Below are positions 1 through 5,554 of a stretch of 5,554 nucleotides of DNA, piece after piece (positions within the stretch are counted from its first letter, which is position 1; each line of letters starts with the position of its first letter). The position numbers and the translations under genes were made by a program. The notes beneath the pieces were generated by a model that did not search any database, had not been told where the DNA came from, and was given only the letters and a program-made list of their open reading frames with translations. This DNA comes from a virus (taxonomy: Duplodnaviria > Heunggongvirae > Uroviricota > Caudoviricetes). The stretch lies in the IMG/VR virus record IMGVR_UViG_2778261464_000002, positions 1 through 5,554 of that record; one strand, written 5' to 3'.

Positions 1-445
1 CAGCGAGCTTTGCTGGCGCTCCAGCAGCTTTTGCCGCTGTGCCAATTGGCAGGAGATACCCACCAATTGTTTCACCGGCTTGCGCGTAAGGGTCTGTCGG
101 TCGATCGACAGGGCGATAAACATCATCCAAAACCTTGGGGCCACCAAGCCCTTGGCTGATTGCATTAATCAGACTTGCGCCACCCTGCAATACGTCAAAT
201 GGTATGTTTACCAGACCACGACCAGCCTGCTCTGCAATTTGCCCTGCACTTTGACCACCTGTGAGCCAATCGCCAGCTTGTTGCATCAATGATGGTTCTT
301 CACGTGCTGGTTCATTATTGGCCTGATTAACTGTTTGTTGCTGAACAGCCTGACCAGCAAAATACTCATCAATGGCGGTGCCAATATCTTCCGTGCTCGT
401 GCCATCAGGGAAGGTAAATGTCTTACCGTTTGCAGTTACTTTCAT
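1..445 (-). CDS. gp16: Ejection (DNA-transfer) protein, P22 gp16-like; N-terminal 148 codons only, 3' end beyond window
   Basis: Minus-strand frame is open from ATG 445..443 to the window edge; hand translation gives [37 protein letters not shown]... A GGTGG Shine-Dalgarno at 455..451 sits 5 nt upstream of this ATG; an in-frame ATG at 448..446 is too close to the SD. The start overlaps the gp20-like TGA stop (447..445) by 1 nt. It is the last gene in the conserved P22 order 10-26-14-7-20-16. Missing from the ORF track only because it has no stop inside the window. Confidence 0.8.
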
Positions 446-1860
446 CATTCCACCGTAAATTGAATGCCTGATTTTGAGGTATATGACCCAACCTGATTCC
501 GTGGTTCTCCTGAAGGAGTCGAATCTTGTGCTGGCTCTGCGTCAGTATTCATTGACATATACCGCTTAACGGCACTCCCCAATGATTCACCTTTTTTAAC
601 ATCCAACCCCAATATCTGACCGCCATTACGCGATTGTCCAGGGTTGCCATTCGCGCTCATCCACTCGGCTTTAAACTCATTAAACTGCGCGTTTCGTCGC
701 TCAAGGTTTGCCATTGCATCAAGCCATCTTGCGACCGTCTCAGGGTTATCCATGTCAGTTGGCGCACCCTGTCGAACGATCTCAACGTCTTTATCCGTTG
801 CGGGGCCGGGAGGTAGGAATTTAAGAACCTGACTGTTAACAAGGGCATTTTGGCGAATGCGCAAATCACGCAATGTCGTATCGCTTCCGGTAAGTTTTGC
901 GAACATGTTCTGTGCGTTACCGAACAAACCTGTCGTTGGTTTTTCTGCTCTGAACTGTTGAGCAAGCGCACTCATGGAATTGGCTGAGTTTGATGATGCT
1001 GTGGCATTGTTTACAGCCGTCTCGATGCCTTTTTCCATGTTTACTGACAGCTTAGGTGCTTCGCTAATCAACTGCTGAGCCTTTTCCTGCGCTTGCTGCA
1101 TCTTAAACCCGAACTCTTGCTGATCCAGAGCCAAGCGTTGTGCTGCGATATTGTGCCCAGTCATTGCTGACTGATAGGAAAGGTTTTGCCCTCTCGCCTG
1201 AAGTGCTTCACCAGCCTGATTGCTGCGGATTGTCTCTGCCAGCCTGCTTCGGTCAATCTCACGACCAGCCATCTTGTCCTGCAAATCCCAATACTTTTCA
1301 TGGCCTAATGCAAACTGACCATATTGTCCGATAAGTTGTGATGTTGCTTGTGGGTCTTTTTGATACATGCTGAGGAGTTGTTGTGGGTCTACCCCCTGAT
1401 TAGACAATCTGGTTGCATTGTTTCCAATCCACTTGCTAAATGCATCACCACCCATCATGGAGGCAATTTGACCGCCTGCCGCTAGATTGCCAATTTCATC
1501 ACGCTGGTCTTCGTCTGCCCACTTCATACCAGACTGAATCTTCTCTAATTGACCAGGATATTTGGTCATCAGATCTCGCACCTGCTGTCGATCACCTGAC
1601 TGGATGGCTGCCGCATATTCTTTTTGGAATGCAGCATCCACTTCCTGTTGCTTTGCGGCTTGATATGTTTGAGCGACACTACCAAGCCCCTGCAACGCCT
1701 GAAGGCCGATGTTATTGCGACCTGAGCGCTCCATTTCGTTGTTCTGGCGAATATAGGCCAACGCCTCACTTACATCACTTGCCTTTGGCGCATTTGAGTT
1801 TTGCCCACCGATACCAGCAAGAAAACCGCCTGAGTTGATTCCTTGTTGCCAAGTAGCCAT
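445..1860 (-). CDS. gp20: Ejection (DNA-transfer) protein, P22 gp20-like, 471 aa
   Basis: Complete 471-aa ORF, the same length I recall for P22 gp20. Gln/Ala/Asn-rich and largely helical-looking, consistent with ejection proteins. AGGTGG-type SD at about 1870..1865 precedes ATG 1860..1858. Position immediately after the gp7-like gene and before the gp16-like gene matches P22/Sf6 synteny. Confidence 0.88.
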
Positions 1861-1869
1861 ATTCCCACC

Positions 1870-2544
1870 TTAAAACAATGATCCAAGACCACCGATAACA
1901 CCGCCAGCAAGAGCACCAATACCAGTCCCAATAACAGGAACTGCACTACCAATCATTGCACCTGATGCGGCCCCACCAATGGCACCTGTAGCAAAACTCT
2001 GTAGGCCTGAAGGCTTATTCGCATTTGCTGCCGCTGCTGCCGCCTGCTGTTGGTACAACTGGCTGACGTTGTTAGCGTAGTTCTGCCCGGCGTTTGCCTG
2101 ACCTGTAAGAGCACCAAGGCCAATGTTTGCCAGATTGTTGTAGTTGTTCATCTGACCTGACAGCCAGTTTTGACCGAGTGTAGGTGCGATTGCTGCTAAC
2201 TGGTTTCCTGTCGCTGTAGAGCCTAATCCACCCGTTGCCTCTGCTGCTGCCAGACTCTGATAGCGCGCCTGCCCTGCAAGGTCTTTGTACTGCTGGGAGT
2301 TGTAATACTGGTTAAGCGCCTGACCTTGCCCCTGAAGAGAAGAAAGATTCTGCAACTGTGATACGTACTGCTGAGCGAGTGGCGTGAACGGTGCAAGGTT
2401 CTGCATGTTCGTCTGCCACATTTCACGCTGCAATTCGATACCCTTTTCAGTTGCGCGGGCCTGCTCTTTTGCTCCGCTATCACTGCCACCTTTGCAGTAC
2501 ACAGCTTTGCTGAGGTGCTTATTGGCAATCTGGAAAATTAACAT
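1870..2544 (-). CDS. gp7: Ejection protein, P22 gp7-like, 224 aa
   Basis: 224-aa ORF (P22 gp7 is about 229 aa by recollection). Has a Gln/Asn/Ala-rich low-complexity tract and a Gly-rich hydrophobic C-terminus (GAIGGAASGAMIGSAVPVIGTGIGALAGGVIGGLGSLF). GAGGAG SD at 2557..2552, 7 nt upstream of ATG 2544..2542. Start lies 26 nt inside the 3' end of the gp14-like gene. Confidence 0.85.
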   Translation of the reverse strand: MLIFQIANKHLSKAVYCKGGSDSGAKEQARATEKGIELQREMWQTNMQNLAPFTPLAQQYVSQLQNLSSLQGQGQALNQYYNSQQYKDLAGQARYQSLAAAEATGGLGSTATGNQLAAIAPTLGQNWLSGQMNNYNNLANIGLGALTGQANAGQNYANNVSQLYQQQAAAAAANANKPSGLQSFATGAIGGAASGAMIGSAVPVIGTGIGALAGGVIGGLGSLF

Positions 2545-2998
2545 TCTTTAGCTCCTCGTATTTTGAGCGCGGTAACTGATAAATCGTGATTCCTACAGGC
2601 TTTCCATTGCTGGTATAAGCATCATCAAGGTGACCAACACGGGTAGCGCCAAGCAAACGGATAATTGACCGTCCGTATTTCGTTGTGTCAGGAACCATGG
2701 TGATGCTGTTAAGGAATGGTGAGTTTTCGAGAAGCCATTTGCAGAATAATCGATGCCCTTGCAGTGCATATTCACCACGGAATCCGGGGTCGTACACCGC
2801 ATGGCATTCAACAACGCTATGCCAGAAGTTACGCACTTCATGAACGCCAGCCAGCACTAATCCTTCGTAGATGCCGAGGTATACCGCATCAGGCTTGATG
2901 TAGTATTTATCTCCACTGTCTACGATATTTCCCGTGTTTGCCGGGTTGTTGAGGAATTCTGCAAGCTTCACCGGATTATCGATGAGCTTTATTTCCAT
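2519..2998 (-). CDS. gp14: gp14-like virion/ejection-associated protein, about 159 aa
   Basis: ORF track gives 2519..3001 with a GTG-derived first Met. I prefer ATG at 2998..2996 because GGAG at 3007..3004 is 5 nt upstream of it and only 2 nt from the GTG. This ATG overlaps the needle gene's TGA stop (3000..2998) by 1 nt. Size and position between the gp26-like and gp7-like genes match P22 gene 14; assignment is by synteny and size, not by remembered sequence. Confidence 0.7.
   Translation of the reverse strand: MEIKLIDNPVKLAEFLNNPANTGNIVDSGDKYYIKPDAVYLGIYEGLVLAGVHEVRNFWHSVVECHAVYDPGFRGEYALQGHRLFCKWLLENSPFLNSITMVPDTTKYGRSIIRLLGATRVGHLDDAYTSNGKPVGITIYQLPRSKYEELKNVNFPDCQ
2552..2557 (-). promoter_or_regulatory. 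Shine-Dalgarno (GAGGAG) for the gp7-like gene, embedded in the gp14-like coding sequence
   Basis: Minus-strand GAGGAG at 2557..2552, 7 nt upstream of ATG 2544..2542; it lies inside the gp14-like ORF, which ends at 2519. Confidence 0.55.
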
Positions 2999-3846
2999 CA
3001 CTGCTCCGCAATGATTTTGATGGTTGTGGCAGTAAACGCCGCACCATTAGACTGAATGGTTAACGTGCTGCCATTTGTGGCAAGAAAGCCGTCTTTATCA
3101 ACGCTAAAGAACGTAGCTAACAGGATGTTGTCGGTTGTTGTCGCCGAGTTGCGACTGCTTACCAGTGTGTCAGGAACAGAGCCGGAAAAAGTTAGCTGCA
3201 TTGACCTGTTGGCGGTTCCGCTGGGCCACGTCCCGACAATCGACAGCTTGAAGAACAGGGTTTTGTTCTCGTTAAACACAACCATCTTGTTGTTAACGGT
3301 GTCGAAGAATGGTGCCAACGTGCCGGATGACGGCGTGAGCGTTTTCAGCAGGCTAACAAGGTTGGTCGGCGCTGTCGGGATAGTTACAGATACGCCAGAG
3401 TAAACAACCTCTGATTTCTTGCGAGTAGTGGCATACTCAAGAGCATCGATGCGCGTCTCATGGTCTGAAAGCGTGTTTTGAATGGCGACAACTTCATCCG
3501 TCAGATAATCAATATCGTTTTCTGCTGTCGTTAATCGCGAATCAAGGCCGACTATCGCCGCTTCTGCGTTAGTGATCCTTGTTTCGTGGTCCTGTATCTT
3601 CGCTTCAGCCGATGCCAGTCGAATTTCGTGATCAACCAGAATCACATCCTGCTCATCGTTCCTGACCTGTGCATCATAAGCGCCTTGTCCGGCCTCGTTG
3701 GCCTTGTTCGCCACGTTACCAACATCAGTACCCTGTGCGATAACGTACAGCAGATATGACTGCGAGAAGATATTGCGTGGAAGGATTGATGTATCGAGCC
3801 GTGTAGCCTGAATGATTACCGGCTCATTGAGATTCGAATCAGCCAT
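2998..3846 (-). CDS. gp26: Tail needle (cell-envelope-penetrating) protein, P22 gp26-like N-terminus and coiled coil with Sf6-type C-terminal knob, 282 aa
   Basis: N-terminus [43 protein letters not shown]...NDEQDV closely matches what I recall of the P22 gp26 N-terminal hub-binding domain. Residues about 61-138 carry heptad-like repeats ([44 protein letters not shown]...). Residues about 140-282 are Ser/Thr/Gly-rich and beta-like, and the 282-aa total matches the Sf6 knob-bearing needle rather than the 233-aa P22 needle. GGAGG at 3858..3854 is 7 nt upstream of ATG 3846..3844; the ATG at 3852 used by the ORF track is only 1 nt from the SD. Confidence 0.88.
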
Positions 3847-4384
3847 TAACATGCCTCCACGATTTACCAGACTGGATATTGTGAATCACCGTCTGACTGA
3901 CACAGTATTTTTTAGCAAGCTCTCTTTGATTAACTCCCTTTGATTTCTTTATTTCTATTACTTGCTCATATGAGAGCTTTGAAATTGGATTATTTTCTCC
4001 TTTTAAAGCCGGAAACTTCACCCTGCCTTGAGATGAGCAATGCTTCATATTCTCCTTTTGAGTGCACCACTCTAAATTAGAAGCATTATTATTTTTTGGG
4101 TTGTTATCTATGTGATTTATGAACGGCTTGCCTTCTGGGTTGGGGACGAAAGCAAGAGCGACAAGCCTATGCACAAGCCATTTTACTTTAACTCCATCAA
4201 CACTAAGTGGCAAATATAGATAACCTTTATTATTCTCGTGTTGTTTTAGCCACCGCCCCTTTCTGAGTTGCGTGCTGCCATGCGCAGCCTTAACAACACG
4301 TGAGTGAGAATATACTCGCCCATCCTCTGTTACGGCATATAAACCTTCATATCCAGGAATATCTTTTGCGTTTTCACTCAACAT
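3839..4384 (-). CDS. Free-standing HNH homing endonuclease (NUMOD4-like N-terminus, HNH_3-type core, C-terminal helix-turn-helix), 181 aa
   Basis: Residues 9-26 [18 protein letters not shown] resemble the NUMOD4 motif. Residues 72-115 [44 protein letters not shown] carry the His/Asn spacing of HNH_3-type nucleases. Residues about 136-178 ([43 protein letters not shown]) look like the HTH tail seen in I-HmuI-like enzymes. Strong AAGGAG SD at 4395..4390, 5 nt upstream of the ATG. Clearly lower GC than the flanks. Confidence 0.88.
3854..3858 (-). promoter_or_regulatory. Shine-Dalgarno (GGAGG) for the tail needle gene, embedded in the last codons of the HNH ORF
   Basis: Minus-strand GGAGG at 3858..3854, 7 nt upstream of ATG 3846..3844; it lies inside the HNH coding sequence, which ends at 3839. 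Confidence 0.6.
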
Positions 4385-4389
4385 ATCTA

Positions 4390-4395
4390 CTCCTT
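4390..4395 (-). promoter_or_regulatory. Shine-Dalgarno (AAGGAG) for the HNH endonuclease gene
   Basis: Plus-strand CTCCTT at 4390..4395 reads AAGGAG on the minus strand, 5 nt upstream of ATG 4384..4382. Confidence 0.6.
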
Positions 4396-4405
4396 TAGTT
4401 TCGAT

Positions 4406-5554
4406 TTATGTTACACGAATAGAAAGGCCTGATAATGTAACAGGACCTTTTGCAATAACTCTGAATTTAAATCCAATGAGGCGTCTAACTCGACCAACTT
4501 TTCGCCATAAAACGCGATTGTCATATACAAATGGTTTTTGTAATACGACCATTTGCTCACGACCGTAATTAATTCCATCTGTAGTTGCTGATATAAATAT
4601 TCTATCTATTCTATCACACACGCCGCCAGATGTTTCTAATTCAAGGTCATTTATTAAAACGTTATCTGCCTTTATTAAAGGAGAATATAAAATATGTTCC
4701 TGTTGCTTGTCGTACTGGCTGCTGATGTCGAATTGCAGTTTCCCGGTAACAGATTCCAGCTTATCGCCACACGTTATCTGATTTCCTTCGTAAATGAAGT
4801 CAATAGCGCGGTACACATGGTCATACAGGCCTGTTTTCAGCACACACCATTGCGGACCATTGGCGCTTGAAGATGCGTCGTACACGAGGACATGGCGCGG
4901 AAGGTGGATAATCAGCAACTCATGAGCATCAAATCGCAGCGATTCCATCACACCATCAGCCAGTTCATCAGCAGTGTAGGAGCGGAGTATTTTCTCAATG
5001 CTCGCGCTGGCGATTGGTGATACCTGACCTGATCCGATGATGTATACAGACGGCGCACCCGTTGCCGGATTGCTGATAAACGCATACGAATCAGCGAATG
5101 GCGTTTTGCAGTAGGTTCCGGCGATTCCTTTTTGCACCATCAACGATGGCTGGGCGACATACAAAGCGGCACCAACAGTGGTTGCGCCCGTCAGGGAGAA
5201 ATATTCAATCGTCGATGAGCCAAAGCAGACGATGAAGTCTCGCCATGTTCCGATGCCGATGATGCCGTCAGGCTGCGACTCGGCACGATATTGTGCGCTG
5301 TAGCGGTCAGGATGTGATTCGTCTTCAAGGTCAGTGATGAACCATGAATCAGTTCCGTCTTTTGACCACGCATAACGCCCACGTAAGCGCGTAATGTCGC
5401 GGACTGAGCCTAACTCATACTGAGTAAAACCGCTGTCTGTAGGCCAGTTTGAGACGGTTTTAACCGTGCCATCATAACGATACTCGACCAGTTGACCATT
5501 AACGCCTACCGCCTGTGATGTCCGACCATGCGCCATTGATACACGACCACTTCC
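4406..5554 (-). CDS. gp10: Tail hub protein, P22 gp10-like; 5' end probably beyond window (383 codons in window)
   Basis: Minus-strand frame is open from the TAA stop at 4406..4408 to the window edge. The track's ATG at 5536 has no convincing SD and six sense codons lie upstream of it, so it is probably an internal Met (P22 gp10 is about 472 aa by recollection). Assigned by position immediately upstream of the needle gene, whose N-terminal domain docks on gp10 in P22. The 3' roughly 300 nt are AT-rich. Confidence 0.62.
   Translation of the reverse strand, partial: GSGRVSMAHGRTSQAVGVNGQLVEYRYDGTVKTVSNWPTDSGFTQYELGSVRDITRLRGRYAWSKDGTDSWFITDLEDESHPDRYSAQYRAESQPDGIIGIGTWRDFIVCFGSSTIEYFSLTGATTVGAALYVAQPSLMVQKGIAGTYCKTPFADSYAFISNPATGAPSVYIIGSGQVSPIASASIEKILRSYTADELADGVMESLRFDAHELLIIHLPRHVLVYDASSSANGPQWCVLKTGLYDHVYRAIDFIYEGNQITCGDKLESVTGKLQFDISSQYDKQQEHILYSPLIKADNVLINDLELETSGGVCDRIDRIFISATTDGINYGREQMVVLQKPFVYDNRVLWRKVGRVRRLIGFKFRVIAKGPVTLSGLSIRVT

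Follow-up and report, generated by a model that had tools for sequence, protein, structure and literature searches.

We analyzed a 5,554-nucleotide (nt) stretch of viral DNA (IMG/VR record IMGVR_UViG_2778261464_000002, positions 1 to 5,554; hereafter, the window), which comes from the virion module of a P22-like (Lederbergvirus) phage or prophage. In this window, a free-standing HNH endonuclease gene lies between gp10, which encodes the tail hub, and gp26, which encodes the tail needle, and the last codons of gp10 share its low GC content. We conclude that positions 3839..4693 probably constitute one mobile cassette of ~0.85 kb, made up of the gp10 3' end (~95 codons, hereafter the gp10 tail), a 21-nt spacer, and the HNH gene, and that this cassette probably spreads by intronless homing with co-conversion. 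The observations behind this conclusion are a composition step inside gp10, a foreign tail, its linkage to the endonuclease gene, the youth of the block relative to its flanks, its presence in many backgrounds, intact nuclease domains, and purifying selection. The minus strand holds all genes of the window; the features that concern the cassette are as follows.

4406..5554, minus strand: gp10 tail hub gene (Pfam PF11134 Phage_stabilise, E 1e-227), its 5' end cut by the window edge
4695..5554, minus strand: native part of gp10, with normal GC content, 93% identical in nucleotides and 99% in amino acids (aa) to HK620 gp10
4694..4760, minus strand: left joint zone, a conserved block coding ...LQFDISSQYDKQQEH, where alignments place the meeting of the cassette with the local gp10 sequence
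4409..4693, minus strand: foreign AT-rich 3' end of gp10, the last 95 codons after a conserved Glu-His (4699..4694), in frame and under purifying selection
4406..4408, minus strand: gp10 stop codon TAA, by direct sequence reading
4385..4405, minus strand: 21-nt spacer with the ribosome-binding site AAGGAG (4395..4390), 5 nt before the HNH ATG, by sequence reading
3839..4384, minus strand: free-standing NUMOD4 + HNH_3 + helix-turn-helix endonuclease gene, 181 aa, type A, by Pfam, PDB, and PHROG matches
3816..3846, minus strand: right joint zone, in which the gp26 ATG at 3846 overlaps the HNH stop codon TGA, 3841..3839 (ATGGCTGA)
2998..3846, minus strand: gp26 tail needle gene, Sf6-type with knob, 87% identical to Sf6 gp26, from the open reading frame (ORF) call

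RESULTS

Composition breaks inside an intact gp10 reading frame

The original prediction, based on a hand count, held that GC content drops through the end of gp10 and the HNH gene and recovers in the needle gene. A sliding-window calculation matched it: GC content is 0.53 at 4801-4920, 0.33 at 4501-4680, 0.32-0.46 across the HNH gene, and ~0.45-0.55 in the needle gene. The predicted low-GC run of ~100 codons at the end of gp10 comes to 97 codons (4409..4699), with a GC content of 34% and a GC content at third codon positions (GC3) of 18% (17/97), versus 51% and 53% (151/285) in the 285 codons upstream (Fisher p 4e-10 for GC3; over all positions, p 4e-7). By maximum likelihood, the composition changes at the Glu codon 4699..4697, and the alignment with HK620 shows its first difference at 4693; therefore, the break lies at ~4694-4699, inside an intact frame. 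Thus, the intact frame stood as predicted, whereas the position did not: the break is sharper, and further 3', than the predicted 4700-4740.

The low-GC block ends where the needle gene starts because the HNH stop codon overlaps the gp26 ATG at 3846. This start was assigned by homology to gp26 starts of the form MAD...; the mechanical ORF call had used the ATG at 3852 (MLMADS...), and the ATGGCTGA overlap with the HNH stop arises solely with the start at 3846. The gp26 gene itself is native sequence, outside the low-GC block.

The gp10 tail lies outside the sampled range of normal tails

In comparison with HK620, window gp10 falls from 93% nucleotide and 99% amino acid identity before the break to 58% and 63% in the last 97 codons; dN (nonsynonymous divergence) is 0.003 before the break and 0.32 after it, where dS (synonymous divergence) is saturated. 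An alignment check suggested with the original prediction thus gave a clear answer, with identity to gp10 homologues collapsing exactly in the last 97 residues. Among cassette-free phages, gp10 protein identity is uniform along the length, and the collapse is seen solely in cassette carriers.

Normal tails do not share the AT richness. In gp10 of HK620, Sf6, P22, vB_EcoP-683R2, and UPF_BP1, tail GC3 is 0.47-0.60 and equals that of the rest of the gene; in ~160 further cassette-free loci from species genomes, IMG/VR, and metagenomes, it is 0.43-0.73 and tracks the gene bodies. The only low-GC normal tails are those of Arsenophonus prophages (GC3 0.28), whose entire gene is low in GC (0.22-0.24). 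The bias would have been intrinsic to the domain if gp10 of HNH-free phages had shown the same AT-rich end with uniform identity; instead, endonuclease-free tails have normal GC content. In carriers, cassette-tail GC3 is 0.18-0.37, in hosts with a gp10-body GC3 of 0.48-0.65.

The tail is the most conserved part of gp10 in Enterobacterales P22-like phages, in which normal tails retain 67-98% mutual identity even with bodies at 50%. Cassette tails are 53-68% identical to every normal Enterobacterales tail and so fall outside the whole sampled set. As judged from these comparisons, the gp10 tail of the window is foreign. Sequence conservation also indicates that the cassette tail is a working part of gp10, because the chimeric gp10 is collinear with and ungapped relative to gp10 of HK620, Sf6, and P22, the isolated phage HZ41 has a tail identical to the window's, and dN/dS is 0.07-0.09 among diverged cassette tails, which differ from each other by a dS of up to 1.4. 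The match to the gp10 profile PF11134 spans positions 88-468 of 469, C-terminal part included.

Tail and endonuclease gene occur together

Linkage was followed in 5,426 complete Escherichia coli genomes, of which 912 have a gp10 match, with the type B tail, spacer, and HNH gene as the query (type B being a 177-aa variant of the HNH protein). The cassette is present in 52 of these genomes, and tail and HNH gene occur together in 52/52, neither alone. Sixteen carriers have a type A HNH gene (one interrupted by the insertion sequence [IS] IS1) and 36 have type B (two split by IS3). In IMG/VR, all 23 tail loci, including one that is IS disrupted and one cut by a contig end, have an HNH ORF 24 nt past the gp10 stop (18 nt where an upstream GTG is read), and all eight metagenomic tail loci have one 18-24 nt downstream. 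None of the ~160 normal-tail loci carries this NUMOD4-HNH gene.

The original prediction had offered two readings of the low-GC gp10 end, co-transfer of the C-terminal part of the hub with the endonuclease or a mosaic segment from a lower-GC lineage. Both gained support and describe the same event, in that the tail is foreign and was never found apart from the NUMOD4-HNH gene.

As a separate observation, IS1- and IS3-family insertions in the HNH gene, with the AT-rich tail kept, occur in locus L049 (~3330 onward), in NZ_CP022164, and in locus L009 (3401-4629; ETEC6333/6334).

The cassette is younger than its flanks and sits in diverged backgrounds

The window and HZ41 have 100% identical tails on gp10 bodies that are 93.8% identical (dS 0.30). 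Similarly, tail dS is 0.015 and body dS 0.29 between the window and prophage BS15R-A, and the values are 0.09 and 0.39 between the window and a type B carrier. The ten type A carriers closest to the window (a comparison that leaves out L054, with 30/853 mismatches, and the diverged L062, L064, and L065, with 90-293/853) show 2-14 mismatches over the 853-bp block (0.2-1.6%), 51-64 over 850 bp of left flank (6-7%), and 14-51 in the first 200 nt of gp26. Averaged over 26 closely related cassettes, divergence is 2.5% in the tails and 6.0% in the gene bodies; the corresponding figures for 71 normal E. coli-type genes are 6.8% and 5.8%.

In 30 of 34 carriers, the gp10 body has its closest match in a locus that lacks the cassette. 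Carrier bodies are HK620-like, Sf6-like, or P22-like, and some are only 60-78% identical to the window's; the P22-like carriers include a Salmonella protein fragment with P22-type sequence directly upstream of the tail. Because the block is younger than its flanks and the backgrounds are polyphyletic, these comparisons indicate that the block has moved horizontally, repeatedly, and recently across diverged backgrounds.

Exchange points crowd at the cassette edges

Two classes of left joint were seen. In class A, that of the window, the joint is at 4694/4693 and foreign sequence starts at 4693; in class B, AT-rich sequence extends 30 nt further, to the equivalent of 4724 (e.g., AGC AGC CAG is replaced by TCT TCA CAA). 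The class is not strictly tied to the HNH subtype, as a type A HNH gene accompanies a class B joint in L050 and L068. Upstream of the tail start, the first mismatch between the window and another type A carrier is met after 1-39 nt. On the right side, gp26 is common to type A and B carriers near the window over its first 11-31 nt, beyond which they pass, at different points, into the sequence of their own backgrounds. The right joint as a whole ranges from 11 to >75 nt into gp26; some P22-like backgrounds switch after 11-17 nt, and the divergent copies L062 and L065 differ already from gp26 position 9. With differences this near to both edges, exchange points crowd at the edges of the cassette, despite the ~1 kb of 93%-identical gp10 alongside.

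Joints cluster at window-equivalent positions 4660-4727. A cassette-free locus, L093 (~2974-3040; IMGVR_UViG_2703718772_000030), has a gp10 body identical to that of the type B carrier L055. Its cassette sequence is confined to -27 to +39 about the tail start (window-equivalent 4726-4660); beyond this lie a normal tail and a different needle gene. This crossover, a single case, lies inside the diverged tail at an identity island of ~10 nt (tail +30..+39) and may mark the break site of the nuclease. A search of the complete E. coli genomes for alleles of this type gave no full-length high-identity match to the patch, megablast having aligned straight through. E. coli strain 1190 (H225), considered as a variable break point, was rejected; it has a normal tail, and its longer match is a BLAST extension.

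The HNH gene resembles known homing endonucleases

The 181-aa protein matches NUMOD4 (PF07463; 44.1 bits, cut-off 23.4) and HNH_3 (PF13392; 39.7 bits, cut-off 24.8), has a weak C-terminal match to HTH_3 that is under its cut-off, and falls in PHROG 59, "HNH endonuclease." Its sole solved relative is I-HmuI of Bacillus phage SPO1 (PDB 1U3E; E 5.5e-12), and the His and Asn residues are kept in this alignment. With dN/dS of 0.03-0.07 among type A copies and 0.04-0.06 among copies of a subtype A', the nuclease looks functional from its sequence.

No family and no group I or group II intron was found in an Rfam scan of the window, promoter-like sites in the cassette are no commoner than in shuffled sequence, and a terminator check of the cassette found none. 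Having its own ORF and AAGGAG, and with no intron, promoter excess, or terminator, the gene is therefore a free-standing one read within the late operon. Both gp10 and gp26 are intact on its two sides, and in the cassette-free phages HK620, Sf6, and P22, gp26 starts directly at the gp10 stop or overlaps it; by this comparison, the insertion is precise at the gp10/gp26 junction. An intron- or intein-encoded nuclease is ruled out, as gp10 has its own stop before the HNH gene and no intron was matched. An HNH protein that assists packaging, of the kind encoded by the terminase in cos phages, is likewise ruled out: the gene sits between tail hub and needle, and P22-like phages package by a headful mechanism, according to a study of the Sf6 tail (PMC9728967).

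Three diverged HNH subtypes (~56% identical) stand behind one tail lineage, whose nucleotide identity to the window is 76-87% with A' and 98% with type B. The A' protein (181 aa, ~56% identical to type A) is encoded just past the gp10 stop in L064, L065, L066, and L133; these carriers have the same tail lineage, 87-93% identical in amino acids. L065 and L066 are P22-like phages whose gp10 body is 60-71% identical in nucleotides to the window's.

The window HNH gene is itself mosaic. Positions 4245-4407, comprising the spacer and the first ~140 nt of the gene, are 87% identical in nucleotides to the type C insertion of UPF_BP1 (described below) and have a GC content of 0.45; past these ~140 nt, the gene has lower GC content and is unrelated to type C at the DNA level.

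Other endonuclease genes at gp10

A related NUMOD4-HNH gene, type C (194 aa), occurs inside the gp10 5' end in UPF_BP1 (L002 3579-4163, plus the gp10 start) and in E. coli LD39-1 (L010 3383-4170). The order there is a 94-nt frameshifted remnant of the old gp10 start, a window-like spacer with its ribosome-binding site, the HNH gene, and a full-length gp10, in which the first ~115 nt are 39% diverged from HK620 and of lower GC content. Spacer, ribosome-binding site, and the first ~47 HNH residues are common to type C and the window (87% at 4245-4407), and the spacer context (AAATCGAAACT..AAGGAGTAGATATG) also precedes the related HNH gene in both UPF_BP1 and LD39-1. Type C is the mirror image of the window cassette, with a new gp10 5' end rather than a new 3' end.

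Type D was found in vB_EcoP-683R2 (L005 2628-3122; URC09345) and also in L153. Annotated as an "endolysin," it is an HNH_3 + AP2 endonuclease (Pfam E 4e-16). It occupies the same gp10/gp26 junction as the window HNH gene, with a different architecture and a normal tail. Different endonuclease genes have therefore landed repeatedly at the gp10/gp26 junction.

Origin of the tail

A search for the tail by tblastn in 50,697 phage records gave only HZ41 above 67% identity, and in 185,579 GTDB species genomes the maximum was 69%. IMG/VR and the Joint Genome Institute (JGI) metagenomes gave matches of at least 87%, all of them chimeric and with the HNH gene, the next best being 69%. A HMMER search of 1.84 billion cluster representatives of ~15 billion proteins found no full-length protein above 64%, and a word-indexed protein search with the tail returned fragments only. 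An apparent 76% "intermediate" tail, P0003 (L011 4026-5444; ENA ERZ1759873 contig_137), was rejected as the same cassette tail with a frameshifted middle; in L011, gp10 and most neighboring genes are split into short ORFs, in what looks like assembly frameshift errors.

Either the donor is unsampled or the tail has evolved for a long time within the mobile element. A tentative and unlikely form of the latter is that the tail is a long-standing "portable gene end" of the endonuclease element, a recoded, nuclease-resistant target terminus carried from phage to phage. This would be compatible with tail dS of up to 1.4, three subtypes behind one tail, an outlying lineage, the lack of a donor, low GC3 in carriers, and the type C 5' end. 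If true, the composition and divergence of the tail would have been shaped by the element's own way of life.

Remainder of the window

The first ~90 codons of gp10 lie beyond the 3' edge of the window; solved homologues of gp10 are 7SG7, 8TVR, and 8EAP. Downstream of gp26 are three further genes.

2519..3001, minus strand: gp14, ORF call
1870..2544, minus strand: gp7, ORF call
445..1860, minus strand: gp20, ORF call

The closest relative of the whole window is a prophage of E. coli MB53 (93% coverage, 95.7% identity), and the closest phage over the region of interest is Escherichia phage HZ41. The ejection-protein genes contain more mosaic joints: 1641-2351, covering the 3' part of gp7 and the 5' end of gp20, is ~71% identical to HK620, Sf6, and HZ41, and 1122-1281, inside gp20, is 98% identical to HZ41. 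Base composition is strongly skewed at 1801-1980 (AT skew as high as +0.41, GC skew as low as -0.46), where gp20 starts (to 1860) and gp7 has its Ala/Gly-rich C-terminal end (from 1870; ...AAAAAANANKPSGLQSFATGAIGGAASGAMIGSAVPVIGTGIGALAGGVIGGLGSLF); amino acid composition is the probable cause.

DISCUSSION

Proposed intronless homing and its alternatives

Homing would begin in a cell shared by a P22-like phage or prophage that bears the cassette and a relative that lacks it, where the endonuclease would nick or cut the cassette-free allele. By analogy with known systems, the cut would lie in or beside the gp10 3' end. Repair from the cassette genome would then copy the endonuclease gene together with the intervening gp10 tail as a co-conversion tract, the 290-bp tail being the obligatory co-converted interval. 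A nucleotide divergence of ~42% would prevent recombination of this tail with normal ones and would shield the carrier from its own enzyme, whose site the tail probably lacks. Tail and nuclease would thus stay welded, and all joints would fall in two conserved flanks, the gp10 block that codes DISSQYDKQQEH and the initial 10-30 nt of gp26. The enzymatic activity, the cut position, and a spread driven by the nuclease are presumed here by that analogy. The co-conversion looked for in free-standing homing genes appears here as a pattern in natural genomes rather than in a cross, and presence/absence polymorphism is found at one fixed site among otherwise collinear relatives.

Several points weigh against homing. 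The role of the nuclease is one that we infer, as to cleavage, target site, and biased inheritance. Complete linkage would also be expected passively, the tail being too diverged to recombine off the gene. The frequency of the cassette, ~6% of E. coli genomes with a P22-like gp10 match (52/912), counts against homing because a strong drive might give near-fixation. No donor combining a wholly low-GC gp10 with the cassette tail was found in four large collections. The type D HNH gene occupies the same junction with a normal gp10 tail, so a diverged tail is not required there. Finally, the residue before the HNH His is Asn (NHID) in every subtype; in I-HmuI, Asp precedes the catalytic His.

Some of these points suit passive mosaicism, in which the block would be exchanged by general or short-homology recombination at its conserved flanks, with the HNH gene as a passenger or in another role (competition or exclusion). 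Mosaicism is pronounced in P22-like virion modules, with other joints in the window itself (1641-2351 and 1122-1281); missing homology inside the block would alone produce the tail-HNH linkage; the frequency is modest (52/912); and the HNH gene has been knocked out by insertion sequences in several carriers that kept the tail. We nevertheless regard this explanation as unlikely. The cassette is 4-30 times less diverged than the adjoining DNA, in many backgrounds, which calls for repeated recent spread, and a neutral passenger has no driver for it; joints fall within tens of bases of the edges rather than over ~1 kb of 93%-identical gp10; and the HNH gene is intact, under strong purifying selection, and has the domain make-up of known homing enzymes. 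An adaptive domain swap, in which the C terminus was selected for virion function (adaptor or needle fit, or escape from a host sensor) and the HNH gene hitchhiked, is less probable still. Such a swap could change an interface: in the Sf6 tail structure, an apical domain built from the N- and C-terminal hub extensions docks between two head-to-tail adaptor subunits (PMC9728967), and the tail is under purifying selection. However, the needle is of several types among carriers (233-aa P22-like; Sf6-type with knob), their gp10 bodies vary, and no partner covaries with the tail among the genes examined, gp4 not having been examined in detail. Moreover, the type C HNH gene is paired with a recoded gp10 5' end, which suggests that the nuclease rather than the domain is the common factor. 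The idea that the AT-rich 3' end is a property of the gp10 domain in all P22-like phages, unrelated to the HNH gene, has practically no chance of being right: it is refuted by the GC3 of cassette-free tails (0.47-0.60 in five phages, 0.43-0.73 in ~160 loci), and the low-GC Arsenophonus tails sit in wholly low-GC genes.

Relation to known homing systems

Co-conversion by homing endonucleases is an established phenomenon, and existing annotations of these genomes include HNH/NUMOD4 genes. The free-standing endonucleases of T4 cut the endonuclease-free genome hundreds of base pairs from their own gene; repair from the endonuclease-bearing genome then copies both the gene and the interval, giving co-conversion tracts and localized marker exclusion (PMC2988022). 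SegG, as cited in that source, cuts away from its own gene and co-converts the interval. The HNH enzyme MobE, encoded between nrdA and nrdB, nicks the 5' end of T2 nrdB, with co-conversion of the flanks and recombination points by the nick (PMC2790892). The window cassette is like T4 MobE and T-even intronless homing (SegF, SegG) in having a free-standing gene between conserved genes, present in some relatives, a co-inherited end of a neighboring gene, and recombination points near the gene edge. It differs in that T-even phages are virulent, whereas the window case concerns temperate P22-like phages and prophages. Furthermore, the co-converted piece of the window is 42% diverged in nucleotides and compositionally foreign, whereas the T-even tracts carry a few polymorphisms.

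The I-HmuI and I-HmuII enzymes of SPO1 and SP82 likewise combine an N-terminal NUMOD-type module, an HNH domain, and C-terminal DNA-binding modules, and the enzymes of these HMU phages exclude flanking markers (PMC2988022). Unlike I-HmuI, which is encoded inside a group I intron, the window HNH gene is free-standing, with no intron signal, and the sequence identity is low. A genomic survey of lactococcal Skunavirus phages reports free-standing HNH genes at recurrent spots, with adjacent core genes less identical, which was attributed to homing (PMC12724721). That case involves another host, phage type, and module (mostly early genes), and no single welded cassette of gene end and HNH gene is described in the sections consulted. 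Our literature search found no description of this cassette or of a chimeric hub in P22-like phages, a mention in the 2011 review of P22 virion-gene mosaicism by Casjens and Thuman-Commike not being excluded.

P22-like phages are textbook examples of mosaic genomes, but what positions the joints can seldom be identified. In the present case, a specific selfish element can be linked to one such joint, which lies within a gene essential to the virion. In ~6% of E. coli genomes with a P22-like gp10 match, and also in Salmonella and in more distant relatives, the C-terminal quarter of the hub appears to have been rewritten by a homing-type nuclease. Inheritance of the gp10 3' end is thus not vertical in these phages, which calls for caution on the part of annotators and phylogeneticists, and one HNH gene at the junction is shown to have been mislabeled as an "endolysin." The cassette is an unusually clean natural example, its pattern predicts a testable target site, and HZ41 compared with HK620 or Sf6 offers a simple system for the study of intronless homing in temperate phages.

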